Positions 16,807 to 46,873 of a DNA stretch of 64,000 nt are shown here, one piece after another (the first letter of the stretch is position 1; every line of letters starts with the position of its first letter). The DNA comes from Escherichia coli. GTDB lineage: Bacteria; Pseudomonadota; Gammaproteobacteria; Enterobacterales; Enterobacteriaceae. The stretch lies in assembly GCF_013122565.1 (NCBI RefSeq), contig NZ_CP053258.1, one strand, 5' to 3'. A program made the position numbers and the translations under genes. The notes under the pieces are model-generated. The model saw nothing but the letters and a program-made list of their open reading frames with translations, did not search any database and had not been told where the DNA came from.

Positions 16807-17106
16807 ATGATGATGAACTCTTTCTTTCCGGCAATGGCACTTATGGTGCTAGTAGGTTGTTCAACACCGCCACCCGTGCAGAAAGCACAACGGGTAAAGG
16901 TTGATCCTCTGCGTTCGTTGAATATGGAAGCGTTATGCAAGGATCAGGCGGCAAAACGTTATAACACCGGCGAACAAAAAATCGACGTCACCGCCTTCGA
17001 ACAGTTCCAGGGAAGCTATGAAATGCGCGGTTATACCTTCCGTAAAGAGCAGTTTGTCTGTTCTTTTGACGCAGATGGCCATTTTTTGCATCTTTCCATG
17101 CGTTAA
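16807..17106 (+). CDS. ysaB: lipoprotein YsaB
   Basis: 99-aa ORF with lipobox LVGCS; upstream of glyQ. Confidence 0.8.
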   Translation: MMMNSFFPAMALMVLVGCSTPPPVQKAQRVKVDPLRSLNMEALCKDQAAKRYNTGEQKIDVTAFEQFQGSYEMRGYTFRKEQFVCSFDADGHFLHLSMR

Positions 17107-17200
17107 GCCCTGCTTTTTCCCGTTTCATACTGTATATCTTCCATCCAGCGGGTATACTGATCCCTTCCTTTAAATCCACACGTATCCAGCACGAAATAAT

Positions 17201-18112
17201 ATGCAAAAGTTTGATACCAGGACCTTCCAGGGCTTGATCCTGACCTTACAGGATTACTGGGCTCGCCAGGGCTGCACCATTGTTCAACCATTGGACATGG
17301 AAGTCGGCGCGGGAACCTCTCACCCAATGACCTGTCTGCGCGCGCTGGGGCCAGAACCGATGGCGGCTGCTTATGTTCAGCCTTCTCGTCGCCCGACCGA
17401 TGGTCGCTACGGCGAAAACCCCAACCGTTTACAGCACTACTATCAGTTCCAGGTGGTCATTAAGCCATCGCCGGACAATATTCAGGAGCTGTACCTCGGT
17501 TCTCTGAAAGAGCTGGGCATGGACCCGACTATTCACGACATCCGTTTCGTGGAAGATAACTGGGAAAACCCGACGCTGGGTGCCTGGGGGCTGGGCTGGG
17601 AAGTGTGGCTGAACGGCATGGAAGTGACGCAGTTCACTTACTTCCAGCAGGTTGGTGGTCTGGAGTGTAAACCGGTTACCGGCGAGATCACCTACGGTCT
17701 GGAACGTCTGGCCATGTACATTCAGGGCGTAGACAGCGTTTACGACCTGGTCTGGAGCGACGGCCCGCTGGGTAAAACCACCTATGGCGACGTGTTCCAT
17801 CAGAACGAAGTGGAGCAGTCCACTTACAACTTTGAGTACGCGGATGTGGACTTCCTGTTCACCTGCTTTGAGCAGTACGAGAAAGAAGCGCAGCAGCTGC
17901 TGGCGCTGGAAAATCCGCTGCCGCTGCCAGCCTACGAGCGTATTCTGAAAGCCGCCCACAGCTTCAACCTGCTGGATGCGCGTAAAGCCATCTCCGTCAC
18001 CGAGCGTCAGCGCTACATTCTGCGCATTCGCACCCTGACCAAAGCAGTGGCAGAAGCATACTACGCTTCCCGTGAAGCCCTCGGCTTCCCGATGTGCAAC
18101 AAAGATAAGTAA
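17201..18112 (+). CDS. glyQ: glycine--tRNA ligase alpha subunit
   Basis: 303-aa ORF matching GlyQ. Confidence 0.95.
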
Positions 18113-18121
18113 GAGGCGGCC

Positions 18122-20191
18122 ATGTCTGAGAAAACTTTTCTGGTGGAAATCGGCACTGAAGAGCTGCCACCAAAAGCACTGCGCAGCCTGGCAGAGTCCT
18201 TTGCTGCGAACTTTACTGCGGAGCTGGATAACGCCGGCCTCGCACACGGCACCGTTCAATGGTTTGCTGCTCCGCGTCGTCTGGCGCTGAAAGTAGCTAA
18301 CCTGGCGGAAGCGCAACCGGATCGTGAAATCGAAAAACGCGGCCCGGCGATTGCCCAGGCGTTCGACGCTGAAGGCAAACCGAGCAAAGCGGCAGAAGGT
18401 TGGGCGCGTGGTTGCGGTATTACCGTTGACCAGGCTGAGCGTCTGACTACCGATAAAGGCGAATGGCTGCTGTATCGCGCCCATGTGAAGGGCGAAAGCA
18501 CTGAAGCACTGCTGCCGAATATGGTTGCGACTTCGCTGGCGAAGCTGCCGATCCCGAAACTGATGCGTTGGGGCGCAAGCGACGTGCACTTCGTGCGTCC
18601 GGTGCACACCGTGACCCTGCTGCTGGGCGACAAAGTCATTCCGGCAACCATTCTGGGCATTCAGTCCGATCGCGTGATTCGCGGCCACCGCTTTATGGGC
18701 GAGCCGGAATTCACCATCGATAACGCCGATCAGTATCCGGAAATTCTGCGTGAGCGCGGGAAAGTCATCGCCGATTACGAAGAACGTAAGGCGAAGATTA
18801 AAGCCGATGCCGAAGAAGCAGCACGGAAGATTGGCGGTAACGCTGACTTAAGCGAAAGTCTGCTGGAAGAAGTGGCTTCGCTGGTGGAGTGGCCGGTTGT
18901 GCTGACCGCAAAATTCGAAGAGAAATTCCTCGCGGTGCCGTCTGAAGCGCTGGTTTACACCATGAAAGGTGACCAGAAATACTTCCCGGTGTATGCGAAC
19001 GATGGCAAACTGCTGCCGAACTTCATCTTCGTTGCCAACATCGAATCGAAAGATCCGCAGCAAATTATCTCTGGTAACGAGAAAGTCGTTCGTCCACGTC
19101 TGGCGGATGCCGAGTTCTTCTTCAATACCGACCGTAAAAAACGTCTGGAAGATAACCTGCCGCGCCTGCAAACCGTGCTGTTCCAGCAACAGCTGGGTAC
19201 GCTGCGTGACAAAACTGACCGCATCCAGGCGCTGGCTGGCTGGATTGCTGAACAGATTGGCGCTGACGTTAACCACGCAACCCGTGCGGGCCTGCTGTCT
19301 AAGTGTGACCTGATGACCAACATGGTCTTCGAGTTCACCGACACCCAAGGCGTTATGGGGATGCACTACGCGCGTCACGATGGCGAAGCGGAAGATGTCG
19401 CGGTGGCGCTGAATGAGCAGTATCAGCCGCGCTTTGCCGGTGATGACCTGCCGTCCAACCCGGTAGCTTGTGCGCTGGCGATTGCTGATAAGATGGATAC
19501 TCTGGCGGGTATCTTCGGTATCGGTCAGCATCCGAAAGGCGACAAAGACCCGTTTGCGTTGCGTCGTGCCGCACTTGGCGTACTGCGTATTATCGTTGAG
19601 AAGAACCTCAACCTTGATCTGCAAACGCTGACCGAAGAAGCAGTGCGTCTGTATGGCGATAAGCTGACTAATGCCAACGTGGTTGATGATGTTATCGACT
19701 TTATGCTCGGTCGCTTCCGCGCCTGGTATCAGGACGAAGGTTACACCGTTGATACCATCCAGGCGGTACTGGCGCGTCGTCCGACTCGTCCGGCTGATTT
19801 CGATGCCCGTATGAAAGCGGTATCGCACTTCCGTACCCTGGAAGCAGCTGCAGCACTGGCGGCGGCGAACAAACGTGTATCTAACATCCTGGCGAAATCT
19901 GACGAAGTGCTGAGCGATCGCGTGAATGCCTCTACTCTGAAAGAGCCAGAAGAAATTAAACTGGCGATGCAGGTTGTGGTGCTACGTGACAAGCTGGAGC
20001 CGTACTTTGCGGAAGGTCGTTACCAGGATGCGCTGGTCGAACTGGCAGAGCTGCGTGAGCCGGTTGATGCTTTCTTCGATAAAGTGATGGTCATGGTTGA
20101 TGACAAAGAATTGCGAATCAACCGTCTTACCATGCTGGAGAAACTGCGCGAATTATTCCTGCGCGTTGCAGATATTTCGCTGTTGCAGTAA
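18122..20191 (+). CDS. glyS: glycine--tRNA ligase beta subunit
   Basis: 689-aa ORF matching GlyS; 9 nt after glyQ. Confidence 0.95.
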
Positions 20192-20206
20192 TCGATAAGT
20201 AATGGA

Positions 20207-20241
20207 AAAACCGACATTCATTTTGGGTGTCGGTTTTTTTT
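20207..20241 (+). terminator. glyQS rho-independent terminator
   Basis: Hairpin aaccgacattcattttgggtgtcggtt followed by an 8-T run. Confidence 0.8.
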
Positions 20242-20259
20242 AATCTTAAGGAATGAGAT

Positions 20260-20619
20260 TTGGCAAAGTTACGAAAGATAGTGGTGGCTGGTCGCACCTG
20301 GTTTTGGGTTTATCGTTACTACTATGCAGATGAGCGAGATTGTTATTTAAGGATAATAAGCGAAGATAAAAAAGCACAGTTTGTAATCTATTTCAGAACT
20401 CCTACTTACCATTACGGTTGTCACCCATTAAATGATGGCCTGCCAGCTTTATACAATAATGTAAAAATCAATATTAATTTGAATCAACCTCGCTTTGTGG
20501 CTCAGTTACTGACTTATGTGTTGGAGAATATTCTTCAAGGTACACCATCAGATGTAATCGAGTACGAGAACGGTAATGAGATGTTACAGCAGCTTGGGTA
20601 TGAGTTTGATTATAAATAA
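20260..20619 (+). CDS. hypothetical protein (orphan ORF, TTG start, no recognisable domain)
   Basis: 119-codon ORF in AT-rich DNA; taaggaa SD 6 nt before TTG at 20260; no in-frame ATG until codon 108; Tyr/Asn/Lys-rich. Confidence 0.35.
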   Translation: MAKLRKIVVAGRTWFWVYRYYYADERDCYLRIISEDKKAQFVIYFRTPTYHYGCHPLNDGLPALYNNVKININLNQPRFVAQLLTYVLENILQGTPSDVIEYENGNEMLQQLGYEFDYK

Positions 20620-20729
20620 TAAAATCCTCATGCCCCATAAATCCTGGTTAATACGATTGTGTTTAATAATCACCTGTTGAATATAATATTATTTATCTAT
20701 TCATTAAGTGAAATTTTTTTTCGGAATTT

Positions 20730-20847
20730 ATCAACAAGAGTGAAATCAGAATTTACGCTAGAATAGCTGCGGGTGCTTGAGACTGTTTGTCTCAGGTATT
20801 CACCGAAAGGCAGACAGAGAAAAGCCCCACCTGACTATAAATCAAAG
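20730..20847 (+). promoter_or_regulatory. hok-type promoter and 5' leader, truncated by IS150
   Basis: -10 tagaat at 20759-20764; leader gggtgcttgagactgtttgtctcagg resembles the 5' end of plasmid R1 hok mRNA; IS150 interrupts it at 20848. Confidence 0.45.
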
Positions 20848-20894
20848 TGTACTGCACCCATTTTGTTGGACGATGAAATGGAATAGCCCCTGAT

Positions 20895-21416
20895 ATGTCA
20901 AAGCCAAAATACCCTTTTGAAAAGCGCCTTGAAGTCGTGAATCACTACTTCACTACTGATGATGGTTACAGGATCATCTCGGCACGTTTTGGTGTCCCCC
21001 GAACCCAGGTCAGGACATGGGTTGCCCTCTATGAAAAACATGGAGAAAAAGGTTTAATTCCCAAACCTAAAGGTGTTAGTGCTGATCCAGAGTTGCGTAT
21101 TAAGGTCGTGAAAGCTGTGATCGAGCAGCACATGTCCCTTAATCAGGCTGCTGCTCACTTTATGCTTGCTGGTAGTGGTTCTGTAGCCAGGTGGCTGAAG
21201 GTTTATGAAGAGCGCGGAGAAGCTGGTTTACGCGCGCTCAAGATTGGCACCAAAAGAAACATTGCAATATCAGTTGATCCAGAAAAAGCGGCATCAGCAT
21301 TGGAGCTGTCAAAAGACCGACGCATTGAGGATCTTGAAAGGCAAGTTCGATTTCTTGAAACGCGGCTTGTGTATCTAAAAAAGCTGAAAGCCTTAGCTCA
21401 TCCCACGAAAAAGTGA
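20895..21416 (+). CDS. insJ: IS150 OrfA (InsJ), HTH transposase subunit
   Basis: 173-aa ORF matching IS150 InsJ; A AAA AAG slippery heptamer at 21377-21383 near its 3' end. Confidence 0.95.
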   Translation: MSKPKYPFEKRLEVVNHYFTTDDGYRIISARFGVPRTQVRTWVALYEKHGEKGLIPKPKGVSADPELRIKVVKAVIEQHMSLNQAAAHFMLAGSGSVARWLKVYEERGEAGLRALKIGTKRNIAISVDPEKAASALELSKDRRIEDLERQVRFLETRLVYLKKLKALAHPTKK

Positions 21417-22264
21417 AAGTACTCAACGAGCTAAGGCAGTTTTATCCTCTTGATGAGCTTCTCAGGGCTGCGGAGATACCGCGCAGTACGTTTTATTACC
21501 ATCTAAAGGCTCTCAGCAAGCCTGACAAGTATGCGGACGTTAAAAAGCGTATTGGTGAGATTTATCATGAGAATAGAGGCCGATACGGATACCGTAGGGT
21601 AACGCTGTCTCTTCATCGAGAAGGGAAACAGATTAACCATAAAGCTGTTCAGCGCCTGATGGGAACCCTCTCACTTAAGGCAGCGATTAAGGTCAAGCGA
21701 TACCGCTCTTACAGAGGAGAGGTAGGGCAAACCGCCCCCAATGTTCTCCAAAGAGATTTCAAGGCTACGCGGCCAAACGAGAAGTGGGTTACCGATGTTA
21801 CTGAATTTGCAGTCAATGGGCGCAAGCTGTATTTGTCTCCAGTAATAGATCTCTTCAACAATGAAGTTATTTCTTACAGCCTTTCGGAAAGACCTGTGAT
21901 GAACATGGTTGAGAATATGCTCGATCAGGCATTCAAAAAGCTTAATCCTCACGAGCATCCTGTTCTGCACTCTGACCAGGGATGGCAGTATCGTATGAGA
22001 AGATATCAAAATATCCTTAAAGAACATGGTATTAAACAAAGCATGTCCAGAAAAGGCAATTGTCTGGATAATGCTGTGGTGGAGTGTTTCTTTGGAACCT
22101 TAAAGTCGGAGTGTTTTTATCTTGATGAGTTCAGTAATATAAGCGAACTGAAGGATGCTGTTACGGAATATATTGAATACTACAACAGAAGAAGAATTAG
22201 CCTGAAATTAAAAGGTCTGACTCCAATTGAATATCGGAATCAGACCTATATGCCTCGTGTTTAA
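21413..22264 (+). CDS. insK: IS150 OrfB (InsK), DDE transposase catalytic domain
   Basis: 283-aa ORF in the -1 frame relative to insJ, overlapping by 4 nt; expressed as OrfAB fusion by -1 frameshifting. Confidence 0.95.
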
Positions 22265-22366
22265 CTGTCCAACTTTTTGGGGTCAGTACAAAGTGAGGCT
22301 GCCTCTATGCTTCAACAACATAAGGTTAGCCTCTTACTCGTTGGAAATCAACACAGGAGGCTGGGA

Positions 22367-22520
22367 ATGCCGCAGAAATACGGATTACTATTCGTTAATA
22401 GTGATTTGTTTCACGCTTTTATTTTTCACCTGGATGATAAGAGATTCACTGTGTGAATTGCATATTAAACAGGAGAGTTATGAGCTGGCGGCGTTTTTAG
22501 CCTGCAAATTGAAAGAGTAA
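22367..22520 (+). pseudogene. hokA: hokA toxin gene, apparently frameshifted
   Basis: ATG at 22367 behind aggagg SD gives MPQKY (HokA N-terminus), but the HokA body SLIVICFTLLFFTWMIRDSLCELHIKQESYELAAFLACKLKE lies in another frame; one extra T near 22391 relative to the sequence implied by the 50-aa HokA. Confidence 0.6.
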
Positions 22521-22526
22521 GAGTCT

Positions 22527-22555
22527 TCGGCGGGAAATTATTCCCGCCTTTCTTA
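22527..22555 (+). terminator. hok 3' stem-loop (fbi/terminator-like)
   Basis: Hairpin ggcgggaaattattcccgcc followed by tttctt, just after the hokA stop. Confidence 0.5.
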
Positions 22556-22679
22556 CGGTGTTGGGTATTCTCAATGCACCCTAATTTATTTCTTTAATGA
22601 ATGTTTTTTTTAAAAAATACGCATGGATTTGGCTATTAGATAAGTTTTTAATCGGGAACAGGAATGGTTCGGAGCCTTC

Positions 22680-23051
22680 ATGAATAAACTGCTTTTACTG
22701 TTGATAATGCTTTATCAACGACATCTTTCTCCTCGCAAAGGATACCGCTGTGCTTACAGTGTGTTGTACCAAACGCAGGGATGTTCGGGAGCAGTCAAAG
22801 AGATTATTCAACAGAAAGGTGTTATTGCAGGCTGGGGCGATATACGTCAGCGTTTTGCAGATTGCCGACTTGCGGCAAAGACAATCAGGCAGAAGCAACA
22901 CCTGAACGAGGTAATACGTAAAAAGAAGAATAATGATTGTGATTGTTCCGGGTGTGATGGTGCGGTCTGTCGTGATTGCGACATTCCGGTGCCGGATCTG
23001 GATTGTTCCTGGGACTGTTCTTCTCTACATTTAAAGCGGTTTTTCCAATAA
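22680..23051 (+). CDS. YidD-like (haemolytic-domain family) small protein with Cys-rich C-terminal region
   Basis: 123-aa ORF, ggag SD 4-9 nt upstream; YQRHLSP, GVIAGWG and DIPVPD motifs parallel YidD YQRLISP / GVIKGSW / DDPVPP; 7 Cys in the last 40 residues. Confidence 0.5.
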   Translation: MNKLLLLLIMLYQRHLSPRKGYRCAYSVLYQTQGCSGAVKEIIQQKGVIAGWGDIRQRFADCRLAAKTIRQKQHLNEVIRKKKNNDCDCSGCDGAVCRDCDIPVPDLDCSWDCSSLHLKRFFQ

Positions 23052-23104: not shown

Positions 23105-23317
23105 TTACAGGCTGGTTACGTTACCAGCTGCCGGGCCTTTAGCGCCGCTTTCGATGGTGAAGGACACTTTCTGACCTTCGTCCAGAGATTTGTAACCATC
23201 GTTCTGGATAGCAGAGAAGTGTACAAACACGTCTTTAGAGCCATCGTCAGGAGTGATGAAGCCGAAGCCTTTGTCAGCGTTGAACCATTTTACGATACCA
23301 GTCATTTTACCGGACAT
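23105..23317 (-). CDS. cspA: major cold-shock protein CspA
   Basis: 70-aa [73 protein letters not shown], exact CspA. Confidence 0.97.
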
Positions 23318-38577: not shown

Positions 38578-40269
38578 ATGAGATACATCAAATCGATTAC
38601 ACAGCAGAAGCTGAGCTTTTTGCTTGCAATCTATATTGGCCTTTTTATGAATGGCGCGGTTTTTTACCGCCGCTTCGGCAGCTATGCGCACGATTTTACC
38701 GTCTGGAAAGGCATTTCTGCTGTTGTTGAACTGGTCGCCACCGTACTGGTGACCTTCTTTCTACTGCGTCTTCTTTCGCTGTTTGGCCGCCGCAGCTGGC
38801 GTATTCTGGCATCATTGGTGGTGCTCTTTTCCGCCGGTGCCAGCTATTACATGACCTTCCTTAATGTGGTTATTGGTTATGGCATCATCGCTTCCGTCAT
38901 GACCACCGATATCGACCTGTCAAAAGAAGTTGTTGGTCTGAACTTTATTCTCTGGTTAATCGCCGTTAGCGCATTGCCTCTTATCCTTATCTGGAATAAC
39001 CGCTGTCGCTATACCTTGCTCCGACAACTGCGAACCCCAGGGCAGCGTATTCGCAGCCTGGCAGTCGTCGTACTGGCGGGTATTATGGTTTGGGCACCGA
39101 TTCGTTTTCTGGATATCCAGCAGAAGAAAGTGGAGAGGGCGACCGGCGTTGATTTGCCGAGTTATGGCGGCGTCGTAGCGAACTCTTATCTGCCATCAAA
39201 CTGGCTTTCGGCATTGGGGCTGTACGCCTGGGCGCGGGTCGATGAATCTTCCGATAATAATTCATTGCTTAATCCGGCGAAGAAATTCACTTATCAGGCA
39301 CCGCAAAATGTTGATGACACTTATGTCGTGTTTATCATCGGTGAAACCACGCGTTGGGACCATATGGGCATTTTCGGCTATGAACGTAACACCACGCCGA
39401 AGCTGGCCCAGGAGAAAAATCTGGCGGCGTTCCGTGGTTACTCCTGTGATACCGCAACCAAACTCTCACTGCGTTGCATGTTTGTACGTCAGGGGGGCGC
39501 GGAAGATAATCCGCAGCGCACATTAAAAGAACAGAATATTTTCGCGGTGCTGAAGCAGTTAGGATTCAGTTCTGACCTCTACGCTATGCAAAGCGAAATG
39601 TGGTTCTACAGCAATACGATGGCGGACAACATTGCTTATCGTGAGCAGATTGGTGCGGAGCCACGTAACCGTGGCAAGCCGGTAGATGATATGCTGCTGG
39701 TAGACGAAATGCAGCAATCGCTGGGGCGCAACCCGGATGGTAAGCATCTGATCATTCTGCATACCAAAGGTTCGCACTTTAACTACACCCAGCGTTACCC
39801 GCGCAGCTTCGCGCAGTGGAAGCCGGAATGTATTGGTGTTGATAGCGGCTGTACCAAAGCGCAGATGATCAACTCCTACGACAACTCGGTGACCTATGTG
39901 GATCATTTTATTTCCAGCGTGATTGATCAGGTTCGCGATAAGAAAGCGATTGTGTTCTATGCAGCTGACCACGGTGAGTCAATTAACGAACGCGAGCACC
40001 TGCACGGCACGCCGCGTGAACTGGCACCGCCGGAGCAGTTCCGCGTGCCGATGATGGTCTGGATGTCAGATAAATATCTGGAAAATCCGGCCAATGCGCA
40101 GGCATTTGCGCAGCTGAAAAAAGAAGCCGACATGAAAGTGCCACGCCGTCACGTAGAGCTGTACGACACCATCATGGGTTGTCTTGGCTATACTTCACCG
40201 GATGGTGGAATTAACGAAAACAACAACTGGTGTCACATCCCGCAGGCAAAAGAGGCAGCGGCTAACTAA
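38578..40269 (+). CDS. eptB: Kdo2-lipid A phosphoethanolamine transferase
   Basis: Start at [21 protein letters not shown] (codon 12 of track ORF); 563 aa; N-terminal TM region plus sulfatase-like domain. Confidence 0.85.
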
Positions 40270-40319
40270 GAGGCCTGCTGACTTTCTCGCCGATCAAAAG
40301 GCATTTTGCTATTAAGGGA

Positions 40320-40348
40320 TTGACGAGGGCGTATCTGCGCAGTAAGAT
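40320..40348 (+). promoter_or_regulatory. proK promoter
   Basis: -35 ttgacg (40320-40325), 17-bp spacer, -10 taagat (40343-40348), GC-rich discriminator gcgccccgc. Confidence 0.55.
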
Positions 40349-40360
40349 GCGCCCCGCATT

Positions 40361-40437
<77 letters not shown>

Positions 40438-40442
40438 ATTTA

Positions 40443-40470
40443 GAAAAACCAGCCTACGGGCTGGTTTTTT
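40443..40470 (+). terminator. proK rho-independent terminator
   Basis: Hairpin ccagcctacgggctgg followed by ttttttgc. Confidence 0.7.
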
Positions 40471-40524
40471 GCTTTCTGCGGCCTGAAGAGGATGAGAACC
40501 TCCGGGGGCTGGGAGGTTCGACTC

Positions 40525-40612
40525 GACGTAGGCCTGATAAGACGCGCCAGCGTCGCATCAGGCAAATGTGCCGGCCCATTGTCGGATGCAGCGTACCCGT
40601 CTTATCCGACCT
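40525..40612. repeat. REP elements between proK and dppA
   Basis: gtaggcctgataagacgcgccagcgtcgcatcaggc and gtcggatgcagcgtacccgtcttatccgacc. Confidence 0.6.
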
Positions 40613-41049
40613 AAACGGCAGCACACCACACATTTCCCTGCCAAATTTGCGCCCCATATCTCACTATCCATTAACGGATTTGTGACAGAAACCATTGTCT
40701 TTTTTTATATTTGCTTAAATCTTTTTTTGCGTTACTTATGGCTGGCGCTGGCATTTTCCGCTGTGCGTTTTAGCGTTCATGGTATTAATCGCTCAGATAT
40801 CCACCTTTTCCTCAGATTTTTTTCATTAAATGCATAAAACTTAATCACCAAATGTTGCTAAATATTAAGCTGATTGTTCTGGTCATGTTGGAGTAGCACA
40901 AATTTCTCTGCTGCAAATAGCTGTTTGAAGTTTTTTTAATCTTTGTTTGTGGATTCTCACCGTTGGTGTAAATCCTGGTTGGCTGTATTGACGTTTTCAC
41001 ATTCTGTTGACAGATTGTAGGTCACGAGGGGCATTTTATGGAGGATCCG

Positions 41050-41188
41050 CACTGTTACACTGATGTTAATTAGTACGGCATCCCCACCTCATAACGTTGA
41101 CCCGACCGGGCAAAAAACAAAAAAGGTCAGGCAGCGACAACCCACTGCAAAGGGTTAAAACAACAAACATCACAATTGGAGCAGAATA
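41050..41188 (+). promoter_or_regulatory. dppA 5' leader with CA-rich stretch (likely GcvB sRNA target region)
   Basis: caaaaaacaaaaaagg...aaaacaacaaacatcacaa just upstream of the RBS. Confidence 0.4.
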
Positions 41189-42796
41189 ATGCGTATTTCC
41201 TTGAAAAAGTCAGGGATGCTGAAGCTTGGTCTCAGCCTGGTGGCTATGACCGTCGCAGCAAGTGTTCAGGCTAAAACTCTGGTTTATTGCTCAGAAGGAT
41301 CTCCGGAAGGGTTTAACCCGCAGCTGTTTACCTCCGGTACCACCTATGACGCCTCTTCCGTACCGCTTTATAACCGCCTGGTTGAATTTAAAATCGGCAC
41401 CACCGAAGTGATCCCGGGCCTCGCTGAAAAGTGGGAAGTCAGCGAAGACGGTAAAACCTATACCTTCCATCTGCGTAAAGGTGTGAAGTGGCACGACAAT
41501 AAAGAATTCAAACCGACGCGCGAAATGAATGCCGATGACGTGGTGTTCTCGTTCGATCGTCAGAAAAACGCGCAAAACCCGTACCATAAAGTTTCTGGCG
41601 GCAGCTACGAATACTTCGAAGGCATGGGCTTGCCGGAGCTGATCAGCGAAGTGAAAAAGGTGGACGACAACACAGTTCAGTTTGTGCTGACTCGCCCAGA
41701 AGCGCCGTTCCTCGCTGACCTGGCAATGGACTTCGCCTCTATTCTGTCAAAAGAATATGCTGACGCGATGATGAAAGCCGGTACACCGGAAAAACTGGAC
41801 CTCAACCCAATCGGCACCGGTCCGTTCCAGTTACAGCAGTACCAAAAAGATTCCCGTATCCGCTACAAAGCGTTTGATGGCTACTGGGGCACCAAACCGC
41901 AGATCGATACGCTGGTCTTCTCTATTACCCCTGACGCTTCCGTGCGTTACGCTAAATTGCAGAAAAATGAATGCCAGGTGATGCCGTACCCGAACCCGGC
42001 AGATATCGCTCGCATGAAGCAGGATAAATCCATCAATCTGATGGAAATGCCGGGGCTGAACGTCGGTTATCTCTCGTATAACGTGCAGAAAAAACCACTC
42101 GATGACGTGAAAGTTCGCCAGGCTCTGACCTACGCGGTGAACAAAGACGCGATCATCAAAGCGGTTTATCAGGGCGCGGGTGTATCAGCGAAAAACCTGA
42201 TCCCGCCAACCATGTGGGGCTATAACGACGACGTTCAGGACTACACCTACGATCCTGAAAAAGCGAAAGCCTTGCTGAAAGAAGCGGGTCTGGAAAAAGG
42301 TTTCTCCATCGACCTGTGGGCGATGCCGGTACAACGTCCGTATAACCCGAACGCTCGCCGCATGGCGGAGATGATTCAGGCTGACTGGGCGAAAGTCGGC
42401 GTGCAGGCCAAAATTGTCACCTACGAATGGGGTGAGTACCTCAAGCGTGCGAAAGATGGCGAGCACCAGACGGTAATGATGGGCTGGACTGGCGATAACG
42501 GGGATCCGGATAACTTCTTCGCCACCCTGTTCAGCTGCGCCGCCTCTGAACAAGGCTCCAACTACTCAAAATGGTGCTACAAACCGTTTGAAGATCTGAT
42601 TCAACCGGCGCGTGCTACCGACGACCACAACAAACGCGTTGAACTGTACAAGCAAGCGCAGGTGGTGATGCACGATCAGGCTCCGGCACTGATCATCGCT
42701 CACTCCACCGTGTTTGAGCCTGTACGCAAAGAAGTTAAAGGCTATGTGGTTGATCCATTAGGCAAACATCACTTCGAAAACGTCTCTATCGAATAA
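41189..42796 (+). CDS. dppA: dipeptide ABC transporter periplasmic binding protein
   Basis: 535-aa ORF with signal peptide; matches DppA. Confidence 0.95.
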   Translation: MRISLKKSGMLKLGLSLVAMTVAASVQAKTLVYCSEGSPEGFNPQLFTSGTTYDASSVPLYNRLVEFKIGTTEVIPGLAEKWEVSEDGKTYTFHLRKGVKWHDNKEFKPTREMNADDVVFSFDRQKNAQNPYHKVSGGSYEYFEGMGLPELISEVKKVDDNTVQFVLTRPEAPFLADLAMDFASILSKEYADAMMKAGTPEKLDLNPIGTGPFQLQQYQKDSRIRYKAFDGYWGTKPQIDTLVFSITPDASVRYAKLQKNECQVMPYPNPADIARMKQDKSINLMEMPGLNVGYLSYNVQKKPLDDVKVRQALTYAVNKDAIIKAVYQGAGVSAKNLIPPTMWGYNDDVQDYTYDPEKAKALLKEAGLEKGFSIDLWAMPVQRPYNPNARRMAEMIQADWAKVGVQAKIVTYEWGEYLKRAKDGEHQTVMMGWTGDNGDPDNFFATLFSCAASEQGSNYSKWCYKPFEDLIQPARATDDHNKRVELYKQAQVVMHDQAPALIIAHSTVFEPVRKEVKGYVVDPLGKHHFENVSIE

Positions 42797-42946
42797 TTAA
42801 AAGCCATACCCGGTGGCGCTGTGCCTCTGCGTGCAGCGCCATCCGGCAGCAATACTTCATTCCCTGCCCGACCTGGGCGGGAATTGATTTGTGAGCAATA
42901 CAGACACGCAGTTCCAGGCTGCGGGTCACTACAGAGAATCCGGGTT

Positions 42947-43966
42947 ATGTTGCAGTTTATTCTCCGACGTTTGGGACTCGTCATCCCCACGTTTATCGGT
43001 ATTACCCTTCTCACATTTGCCTTTGTCCACATGATCCCGGGCGATCCGGTGATGATCATGGCGGGCGAACGTGGGATCTCCCCAGAGCGTCACGCGCAGC
43101 TGCTGGCTGAACTCGGCTTAGATAAACCGATGTGGCAGCAGTATCTCCATTACATTTGGGGCGTTATGCATGGCGATCTAGGCATTTCAATGAAAAGCCG
43201 CATCCCTGTTTGGGAAGAGTTCGTGCCGCGCTTCCAGGCCACGCTGGAACTTGGTGTCTGCGCGATGATTTTTGCTACGGCAGTCGGTATTCCGGTTGGT
43301 GTGCTGGCTGCGGTTAAACGCGGTTCCATTTTCGATCACACGGCGGTTGGTCTGGCACTGACCGGCTACTCGATGCCGATCTTCTGGTGGGGCATGATGC
43401 TGATCATGCTGGTTTCAGTACACTGGAACCTGACGCCCGTCTCCGGTCGCGTGAGCGACATGGTGTTCCTCGATGACTCCAATCCGTTAACCGGTTTTAT
43501 GCTGATCGACACCGCCATCTGGGGTGAAGATGGCAACTTTATCGATGCCGTTGCCCATATGATCCTGCCCGCCATTGTGCTGGGTACTATTCCGCTGGCG
43601 GTCATTGTGCGTATGACACGCTCCTCGATGCTGGAAGTGCTGGGTGAAGATTACATCCGCACCGCGCGCGCCAAAGGGCTAACCCGCATGCGGGTGATTA
43701 TCGTCCATGCGCTGCGTAACGCGATGCTGCCGGTAGTGACCGTTATCGGCCTCCAGGTGGGAACATTGCTGGCGGGGGCGATTCTGACCGAAACCATCTT
43801 CTCGTGGCCCGGTCTGGGGCGCTGGTTGATTGACGCACTGCAACGCCGCGACTATCCGGTAGTGCAGGGCGGCGTATTGCTGGTGGCGACGATGATTATC
43901 CTCGTCAACTTGCTGGTCGATCTGCTGTACGGCGTGGTGAACCCGCGTATTCGTCATAAGAAGTAA
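42947..43966 (+). CDS. dppB: dipeptide ABC transporter permease
   Basis: Start at MLQFILRRLGLVIPTFIG (codon 43 of track ORF); 339 aa. Confidence 0.9.
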   Translation: MLQFILRRLGLVIPTFIGITLLTFAFVHMIPGDPVMIMAGERGISPERHAQLLAELGLDKPMWQQYLHYIWGVMHGDLGISMKSRIPVWEEFVPRFQATLELGVCAMIFATAVGIPVGVLAAVKRGSIFDHTAVGLALTGYSMPIFWWGMMLIMLVSVHWNLTPVSGRVSDMVFLDDSNPLTGFMLIDTAIWGEDGNFIDAVAHMILPAIVLGTIPLAVIVRMTRSSMLEVLGEDYIRTARAKGLTRMRVIIVHALRNAMLPVVTVIGLQVGTLLAGAILTETIFSWPGLGRWLIDALQRRDYPVVQGGVLLVATMIILVNLLVDLLYGVVNPRIRHKK

Positions 43967-43975
43967 GGGGACATC

Positions 43976-44878
43976 ATGTCACAGGTTACTGAAAATAAAG
44001 TGATTAGCGCACCGGTGCCGATGACCCCGTTACAGGAGTTCTGGCACTATTTTAAACGCAACAAAGGCGCGGTCGTCGGGCTGGTTTACGTCGTCATCGT
44101 GCTGTTTATCGCGATCTTTGCCAACTGGATTGCACCCTATAACCCGGCGGAACAGTTCCGCGATGCACTGCTCGCCCCGCCAGCCTGGCAGGAAGGCGGC
44201 AGCATGGCGCACTTGCTGGGCACCGATGACGTCGGTCGTGATGTGCTGTCGCGCCTGATGTACGGTGCGCGATTGTCACTGCTGGTTGGCTGTCTGGTGG
44301 TGGTGTTATCGCTGATTATGGGCGTTATTCTCGGCCTGATCGCCGGTTACTTCGGCGGCCTGGTCGATAACATCATCATGCGCGTGGTCGATATCATGCT
44401 GGCGCTGCCAAGTCTGCTGTTGGCACTGGTGCTGGTGGCGATTTTCGGCCCGTCGATTGGTAACGCCGCGCTGGCGCTGACCTTCGTTGCCTTGCCGCAC
44501 TATGTGCGCTTAACACGCGCCGCCGTGCTGGTGGAGGTGAATCGCGATTACGTTACCGCGTCTCGCGTGGCAGGTGCCGGGGCGATGCGTCAGATGTTTA
44601 TTAACATCTTCCCGAACTGCCTTGCGCCTCTGATTGTTCAGGCGTCGCTCGGTTTCTCTAACGCCATTCTCGATATGGCTGCTCTTGGTTTCCTCGGCAT
44701 GGGGGCACAGCCGCCAACGCCTGAGTGGGGCACCATGCTCTCCGACGTGTTGCAGTTCGCGCAAAGCGCCTGGTGGGTCGTGACCTTCCCTGGTCTGGCG
44801 ATCCTGCTGACGGTGCTGGCATTTAACCTGATGGGTGACGGTCTGCGTGACGCGCTCGATCCCAAACTGAAGCAGTAA
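43976..44878 (+). CDS. dppC: dipeptide ABC transporter permease
   Basis: 300-aa permease matching DppC. Confidence 0.9.
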
Positions 44879-44888
44879 GAGGTTCGAG

Positions 44889-45872
44889 ATGGCGTTATTA
44901 AATGTAGATAAATTATCGGTGCATTTCGGCGACGAAAGCGCACCGTTCCGCGCCGTAGACCGCATCAGCTACAGCGTAAAACAGGGCGAAGTGGTCGGAA
45001 TTGTGGGTGAGTCTGGCTCCGGTAAGTCGGTCAGTTCACTGGCTATTATGGGGCTGATTGATTATCCGGGCCGCGTAATGGCGGAAAAGCTGGAGTTTAA
45101 CGGTCAGGATTTACAGCGTATCTCAGAAAAAGAGCGCCGCAACCTGGTGGGTGCCGAAGTGGCGATGATCTTCCAGGACCCGATGACCAGCCTTAACCCG
45201 TGCTACACAGTGGGTTTCCAGATTATGGAAGCGATTAAGGTGCATCAGGGCGGTAATAAGAGCACTCGTCGTCAGCGGGCGATTGACCTGCTGAATCAGG
45301 TCGGTATTCCCGATCCGGCATCGCGTCTGGATGTTTACCCGCATCAGCTTTCCGGCGGCATGAGCCAGCGCGTGATGATCGCCATGGCGATTGCCTGTCG
45401 GCCAAAACTGCTGATTGCCGATGAACCAACCACTGCGCTGGACGTGACCATTCAGGCGCAAATCATTGAACTACTGCTGGAGCTACAGCAGAAAGAGAAC
45501 ATGGCGCTGGTGTTAATTACCCATGACCTGGCGCTGGTGGCGGAAGCGGCGCATAAAATTATCGTGATGTATGCCGGCCAGGTGGTGGAAACGGGCGATG
45601 CGCACGCCATCTTCCATGCGCCGCGTCACCCGTATACCCAGGCATTGCTGCGTGCGCTGCCGGAATTTGCTCAGGATAAAGAACGTCTGGCGTCGTTGCC
45701 AGGTGTTGTTCCCGGCAAGTATGACCGTCCGAACGGCTGCCTGCTTAACCCGCGCTGCCCCTATGCCACTGACAGATGCCGCGCTGAAGAACCGGCGTTG
45801 AATATGCTCGCTGACGGGCGTCAGTCCAAATGCCATTACCCACTTGATGATGCCGGGAGGCCGACACTATGA
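44889..45872 (+). CDS. dppD: dipeptide ABC transporter ATP-binding protein
   Basis: 327-aa ORF; Walker A GESGSGKS, signature LSGGMSQR. Confidence 0.9.
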
Positions 45873-46873
45873 GTACGCATGAGGCCACCTCGCAACAACC
45901 GCTGTTGCAGGCTATCGACCTGAAAAAACATTATCCGGTGAAGAAAGGTTTGTTCGCACCGGAACGTCTGGTGAAGGCGCTGGATGGCGTTTCGTTTAAC
46001 CTTGAACGTGGCAAAACGCTGGCGGTAGTAGGTGAATCTGGCTGCGGTAAATCGACCCTCGGTCGGTTGCTGACGATGATTGAAACGCCCACCGGCGGCG
46101 AGCTGTATTACCAGGGGCAGGATCTGCTCAAGCACGATCCGCAGGCGCAGAAGTTGCGTCGGCAGAAAATCCAGATTGTCTTCCAGAACCCTTACGGTTC
46201 GCTGAATCCACGTAAAAAAGTCGGGCAAATTCTTGAGGAGCCGCTGCTGATTAATACCAGCTTAAGCAAAGAACAGCGTAGGGAAAAAGCCCTGTCGATG
46301 ATGGCGAAAGTCGGCCTGAAAACCGAGCACTATGACCGCTATCCGCATATGTTCTCCGGCGGTCAGCGTCAGCGTATCGCCATCGCCCGTGGTCTGATGC
46401 TCGACCCGGATGTGGTGATTGCCGATGAGCCGGTTTCCGCGCTGGACGTCTCAGTGCGTGCGCAGGTGCTCAACCTGATGATGGATTTGCAGCAGGAACT
46501 GGGGCTTTCTTATGTCTTTATCTCGCACGACCTGTCGGTTGTGGAGCACATTGCTGATGAAGTGATGGTGATGTACCTGGGCCGCTGCGTGGAGAAAGGG
46601 ACGAAGGACCAAATCTTCAATAACCCGCGCCACCCGTACACTCAGGCGCTGCTCTCCGCCACACCACGCCTGAACCCGGACGATCGTCGCGAACGCATCA
46701 AACTCACCGGTGAACTGCCAAGCCCGCTCAATCCACCGCCGGGTTGCGCCTTCAACGCCCGCTGTCGTCGGCGCTTCGGCCCCTGCACTCAGTTACAGCC
46801 ACCGCTGAAAGATTACGGCGGTCAACTGGTGGCCTGCTTTGCCGTTGATCAGGATGAAAATCCGCAGCGTTAA
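45869..46873 (+). CDS. dppF: dipeptide ABC transporter ATP-binding protein
   Basis: 334-aa ORF; Walker A GESGCGKS; overlaps dppD stop by 4 nt. Confidence 0.9.

Follow-up and report, generated by a model that had tools for sequence, protein, structure and literature searches.

Organisation of the glyS–cspA interval

In Escherichia the hokA locus is set between glyS and cspA, and this is where it lies in the sequence analysed here (the window), a 64,000-nt stretch of E. coli contig NZ_CP053258.1. The end of glyS is at nt 20191, and cspA is encoded on the minus strand (nt 23105–23317). Between them, all on the plus strand, are found a 119-aa ORF (nt 20260–20619), which separates glyS from the hokA promoter; a -10-like hexamer, TAGAAT (nt 20759–20764, 6 nt 5' of the first leader base), which probably marks that promoter; the first 77 nt of the hokA mRNA leader (nt 20771–20847), beginning with the 5' tac element (nt 20771–20782); a copy of IS150 (1443 bp, nt 20848–22290); the 3' part of the leader (nt 22291–22369); hokA itself; and a paralogue of yidD (nt 22680–23051). 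The 3' UTR of hokA contains a GC-rich hairpin followed by TTTCTT (nt 22529–22548) and, further downstream, a 3' fold-back (fbi) element (nt 22569–22581) that minimum-energy folding predicts to pair with the mRNA 5' end. A small ORF of the ysaE type (nt 22497–22568, minus strand) overlaps the 3' end of hokA in antiparallel orientation. The ysaE product, of 23 aa, is annotated in K-12 and PT62, and the annotation of the closest relatives has it as a hypothetical protein; the ORF is left unaffected by the hokA frameshift described below.

The 119-aa ORF has no match in Pfam or NCBIfam, and the segment carrying it is absent from this position in all of the 5,426 complete E. coli genomes that made up our comparison set. 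It is present in some strains of E. fergusonii (locus L012, and interrupted by IS1 in L013), and exactly the same protein was found on one public contig only, a short one (Logan SRR11451224). The yidD paralogue is a second yidD-like gene, specifying a protein of 123 aa (TIGR00278, 75 bits) with a Cys-rich C-terminal tail; a gene of this kind is absent from between hokA and cspA in K-12 and ATCC 11775 and present there in E. fergusonii. The whole segment from IS150 through hokA to the yidD paralogue is matched in about 50 of the complete E. coli genomes. Across the glyQS (nt 17000–20700) and dpp (nt 40000–46000) regions, the best identity found in the comparison set is only about 98.4–98.5%, which, together with an E. 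coli-like gene order, indicates that the window comes from a lineage unrepresented among those genomes.

The hokA reading frame

Translation from the ATG at nt 22367, which follows a Shine-Dalgarno sequence (AGGAGG, nt 22355–22360), gives MPQKYGLLFVNSDLFHAFIFHLDDKRFTV, a product of 29 codons that ends at a TGA (nt 22454–22456), so that the truncated frame occupies nt 22367–22456. The conserved Hok body, from Ser9 to Glu50, reads SLIVICFTLLFFTWMIRDSLCELHIKQESYELAAFLACKLKE and is followed by a TAA stop; it is encoded in the +1 frame (nt 22392–22520), where it matches the Pfam family HOK_GEF (PF01848) with an E-value of 3.9e-20 and 71.6 bits (cutoff 22). The frameshift product has no match to any Pfam or NCBIfam family, and the 29 codons include neither Cys nor a hydrophobic stretch of 17 residues such as HokA has. 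A second ATG, at nt 22307, is in frame with the one at nt 22367, and its product also ends early, at 49 aa. In all these points, namely a short frame behind AGGAGG, a Hok body without a usable start in another frame, and a candidate mok start that shares the truncated frame, the sequence bears out the original prediction.

When A22390 (see below) is removed in silico, the resulting protein reaches 127.7 bits with NF007290, the HokA equivalog model (cutoff 89). The gene matches the profile of the Hok/Gef family and does not have the uninterrupted ORF of about 50 codons behind a Shine-Dalgarno sequence. Judged by its sequence, the hokA of the window is a pseudogene of the Hok/Gef type I toxins rather than a functional member.

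The extra base and the allelic background

Ten intact hokA alleles were aligned with the window: those of K-12 (XL1-Blue), ATCC 11775, PT62, GF60 and 50579417, and five from E. fergusonii. Relative to every one of them the window has one extra base, an A at nt 22390 within hokA codon 8 (CTTTC changed to CTATTC), which shifts the frame by +1. Just such an alignment had been proposed as a check on the original prediction, which placed an additional T near nt 22391. A one-base insertion is indeed present, and no intact allele carries it, but its identity and position need correction, as the alignment to the reference alleles has one mismatch more when T22391 is taken out than when A22390 is.

The surrounding sequence is of the E. 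fergusonii type. Within the ORF this shows in TAC at nt 22379–22381, GGA (Gly6) at nt 22382–22384 and TCG at nt 22392–22394, and in the leader (nt 22300–22318) several changes and one extra base relative to K-12 are all common to E. fergusonii. Gly6 had been put forward as an R6G change accompanying the insertion. The residue is as described, but it is not damage: the intact Gly6 protein, MPQKYGLLSLIV...KLKE, is common in E. fergusonii and occurs on 57 public contigs, where it is named E. fergusonii HokA. R6G was thus discarded as a second lesion and belongs to the allelic background.

Intact Gly6 alleles of E. fergusonii (e.g. GCA_036949985.1, GCA_003944565.2) have a leader and ORF equal to those of the window minus A22390, and when IS150 is left out of nt 20768–22536, this base is the sole difference from the E. 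fergusonii locus L012. Gene order is also shared (glyS, the 119-aa ORF in some strains, hokA, the yidD paralogue, cspA). E. fergusonii differs from the window in having neither IS150 nor the frameshift, in flanks that diverge by 3–8%, and in an MFS transporter gene after yiaG. The near-perfect agreement covers a segment of some 330 bp corresponding to the hokA mRNA (nt 20771–20847 plus nt 22294–22536), with flanking DNA that differs by about 3–4% or more on either side. This pattern suggests that the hokA mRNA segment alone may have been exchanged recently between E. fergusonii and a lineage of E. coli.

IS150 in the hokA leader

The inserted element has the features of IS150: a length of 1443 bp, terminal inverted repeats, the overlapping ORFs insJ (nt 20895–21416) and insK (ending at nt 22264), and a 3-bp target duplication, AAG, of which the left copy is at nt 20845–20847 and the right at nt 22291–22293. 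It is 99.1% identical to the K-12 copy (13 mismatches), and in relatives PGAP names its product 'IS3-like element IS150 family transposase'. The transposase genes are transcribed toward hokA.

The position of the element within the leader was determined with the Rfam model RF01794, which is named "sok" and which, in the orientation used here, covers the leader of the hok mRNA, the stretch between the 5' end of the transcript and the hok AUG. At an IS-free E. fergusonii locus the model matches from end to end (120.6 bits). In the window no contiguous leader of about 155 nt exists; the match is split, with model positions 1 to ~83 before IS150 and ~84–157 after it. This places the insertion between leader nt 77 and 78, 4 nt upstream of the mokA Shine-Dalgarno sequence. 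The promoter, tac and the upstream leader structures are now 1.45 kb away from mokA and hokA. On the downstream side mokA has its GAGG (nt 22295–22298), its ATG (nt 22307) and a frame that stays open to the hokA ATG, in agreement with the K-12 annotation of mokA; translational coupling of the two is putative.

The antisense gene is also interrupted. The 35-nt sokA pseudogene remnant of MG1655 maps, as its reverse complement, to nt 20814–20847 on the minus strand, so that IS150 splits sokA as well. Instead of an intact sokA, the window has the 3' 34 nt of the gene (its terminator region) on this side of the element, and the rest would lie beyond IS150, from nt 22291 on the minus strand, where the promoter-proximal part probably occupies about nt 22291–22350.

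For an IS-less reconstruction, IS150 and one copy of AAG were deleted in silico and a minimum-energy fold was computed. In this model nt 20771–20782 pair with nt 22569–22581, giving 12 base pairs with one bulged base, which is the tac/fbi interaction expected of a hok mRNA. The predicted pairing concerns the reconstructed molecule; in the genome as it stands, about 1.8 kb separates tac from fbi.

A generic sigma-70 scan flagged neither the hokA nor the sokA promoter, and both are predicted from sequence context. There is no T-tailed terminator on the plus strand at the right end of IS150, so that being cut off from its promoter, as hokA had been described, need not mean that the gene is untranscribed. 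The earlier view of a toxin doubly inactivated, by IS150 in the leader and by a frameshift, agrees with the broken frame and the split RF01794 leader seen here, inactivation itself being what the sequence predicts.

Comparison with K-12 and plasmid R1

A close counterpart is the hokA/mokA/sokA locus of K-12 MG1655 (b4455, b4647 and b4614), which has the same glyS–cspA position, an IS150 in the mRNA leader, a mokA in frame with hokA and, beyond the IS, what remains of sokA. The insertions themselves differ. In K-12 the element points the other way, stops 32 nt short of the hokA ATG and has no target duplication; a 44-bp deletion has removed the mokA start, and hokA has an intact ORF of the Arg6 type. 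In the window IS150 ends 76 nt before the hokA ATG and is flanked by the AAG duplication, mokA is complete, and it is hokA that is frameshifted. As the K-12 element is inverted, uses another junction and is accompanied by the 44-bp deletion, K-12 is the wrong comparison for this locus, and in comparisons between strains the window hokA should be set against the E. fergusonii-type allele instead. The K-12 IS150 (within MG1655 nt 3720600–3722111) is identical in sequence to the copy in strain 50579417, which occupies the same site as that of the window. The K-12 arrangement suggests either an insertion 1 nt away and a subsequent adjacent deletion, or a rearranged form of the common insertion.

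The hok/mok/sok system of plasmid R1 has the same architecture, with tac/fbi pairing and an antisense Sok RNA that covers the region of the mok start, and there the upstream mok start is required for translation of hok (PMC9841398). In R1 the mok and hok frames differ and post-segregational killing is functional, whereas in the window mokA is in the frame of hokA and the locus is broken.

Occurrence of the frameshift and of the IS150/hokA junction

A 296-bp segment of hokA from the window is 100% identical to that of E. coli LHM10-1, and identities of at least 99% were found in just seven of the 5,426 complete genomes: LHM10-1, VE-T9, UTME-7, CP52E, wlxctx60, XJ5.2 and 6EVA. Their sources, spread over several countries, are pig, beef, human, bear and cattle, and they were sequenced in separate projects. 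All seven are identical to the window across nt 22190–22603, and share with it the hokA sequence including A22390, the site and orientation of IS150, and the yidD paralogue downstream. They differ from the window upstream, where their sequence is of the E. coli type, without the 119-aa ORF and highly divergent over nt 20672–20769; the left copy of their target duplication is AAA, and their IS150 differs from the window copy at 7–8 positions. PGAP annotates hokA as a 154-nt "frameshifted" pseudogene in the three of these genomes that were inspected. The case is therefore already known in kind, the identical allele being labelled "frameshifted" in RefSeq, and the window hokA should likewise be called a pseudogene. 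No description of the frameshift allele was found in the literature on hokA with IS150.

Outside the complete genomes, the 49-aa product that starts at the mokA ATG is encoded on at least 46 public contigs (NCBI, ENA, Logan), and the frameshift allele is present in Logan run assemblies and on an ENA metagenome contig. A 44-mer spanning the frameshift has no match among the GTDB species representatives. No version of the window allele without the A exists among the 5,426 complete E. coli genomes, in which the best matches to the allele are the seven frameshifted genomes (98.8%) and the next best reaches 96.3%.

The junction is far more widespread than the frameshift. A 281-nt query covering the right end of IS150 and the adjoining part of hokA (nt 22150–22430), with at least 80% coverage counted as a match, finds the junction in the same orientation in up to 875 of the 5,426 complete genomes; the best 60 of these 875 matches are all full-length and in a single piece, and include E. 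coli W. As only seven of the up to 875 carry the frameshift, it is a rare additional lesion. Strains GF60, 50579417 and PT62 have IS150 next to an intact 50-codon hokA of other allele types. At least three different hokA alleles adjoin IS150 at this site, and the copies of the element differ by 7–14 SNPs. These observations point to a junction that is either a long-standing polymorphism disseminated through recombination or the product of a very specific insertion hotspot.

Probable decay of the locus and alternative explanations

Our main interpretation, to which we assign a probability of about 0.9, is that the window carries a hokA/mokA/sokA type I toxin-antitoxin locus that has decayed in the ordinary way through two independent lesions. 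One is the insertion of IS150 between leader nt 77 and 78, parting the promoter, tac and the leader structures from mokA and hokA and cutting sokA. The other is the single A inserted into codon 8 of a hokA of the E. fergusonii type that is intact in all other respects. From the hokA ATG only the 29-aa peptide, and from the mokA ATG only the 49-aa peptide, could then be made; neither includes the transmembrane helix or the cysteines, and the Hok body is left without its own start. Production of the toxin has probably been lost, and the frameshift would represent neutral decay in a locus already silent or dispensable. A hok gene with a premature stop is no longer toxic (PMC9841398). Overexpression of the K-12 HokA coding sequence is toxic, and chromosomal hokA, even when intact, is reported unable to bring about post-segregational killing (bioRxiv 10.1101/2025.08.07.668861), so that the two lesions may carry no functional cost.

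Whether toxin might be produced after all turns on the reality of the extra base and on the ways around it. Single-base indels are the commonest type of assembly error, and the genome of the window is not itself among the 5,426 that could corroborate it (best identity about 98.4–98.5%, see above); were A22390 such an error, hokA would truly be intact. The same A recurs in seven independently sequenced complete genomes identical over more than 400 nt around it, as well as in the Logan assemblies and the ENA metagenome contig, it breaks up a run of TTT and lengthens no homopolymer, and no complete E. coli genome has the allele without it. This recurrence makes an error very unlikely, and A22390 is to all appearances a real, inherited allele. 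The original prediction had named an assembly error, or reference alleles with the same base, as what would overturn the frameshift; neither holds. Still less credible is synthesis of the toxin from the broken gene by ribosomal frameshifting or from an internal start. The frame of the Hok body is open all the way from nt 22227 to 22520, as such a route would need, but there is no slippery heptamer between nt 22367 and 22392, and within that frame no ATG, GTG, TTG, CTG or ATN codon has a correctly spaced Shine-Dalgarno sequence, the first ATG (nt 22434) coming only after the transmembrane segment.

Two further alternatives accept both lesions and concern their relationship. The frameshift could be a selected suppressor: read-through from IS150, combined with loss of the inhibitory leader and of sokA, would have made HokA expression leaky and favoured a null mutation, such that only a null hokA allowed the combination of IS150 with the E. 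fergusonii-type allele to persist. The direction of IS150 transcription toward hokA with no plus-strand T-tailed terminator at the right end of the element, the intact ribosome-binding sites of mokA and hokA downstream of it, the split sokA and the toxicity of overexpressed HokA all fit such a scheme. It is nonetheless improbable, since almost all genomes with the junction are without the frameshift allele and the three inspected keep an intact 50-codon hokA, which indicates that the insertion is tolerated without a second hit, and since the frameshift is also found without IS150. The latter situation is seen on an ENA metagenome contig, L014, and seven similar contigs; the flanks of L014 are 100% and 99.94% identical to those of LHM10-1. 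Given this contig, the order in which IS150 came first, to which the intact hokA of IS150-bearing relatives had seemed to point, was no longer taken as established. A reversed order is plausible, though we hold it only tentatively and at somewhat less than even odds: the frameshift would have arisen in an IS-free allele of the E. fergusonii type that had entered E. coli, IS150 would have been acquired afterwards, either by inserting afresh into a hotspot or through recombination with a neighbour carrying it, and the lesions would be causally unrelated. The IS-free frameshifted contigs with their near-identical flanks, the association of IS150 copies 7–14 SNPs apart with at least three hokA alleles, and the report that hok/sok genes adjoin hotspots of mobile element insertion in E. 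coli (bioRxiv 10.1101/527788) favour this order. Against it, L014 lacks the 4 nt AATC precisely where IS150 is inserted in the other genomes (window nt 20840–20843), and could equally be the product of an imprecise excision. The IS150-bearing genomes retain AATC, so that L014 cannot be their direct ancestor; judging from these sequences it would either have arisen by imprecise excision or represent an IS-free branch of its own. The loss of AATC in the IS-free frameshifted contigs may be the footprint of such an excision. A frameshift that preceded IS150 concerns the order of events alone and is compatible with ordinary decay by two lesions.

With regard to the biology of hok loci in E. coli, the population counts suggest that an IS150-split hokA has been tolerated for long periods without further inactivation. 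Inactivation by IS elements, point mutations or rearrangements has been described for the five hok loci of K-12 (Pedersen & Gerdes 1999, as cited in PMC7232551), and the locus in the window would be one further example of chromosomal hok loci decaying by IS insertions and point mutations.
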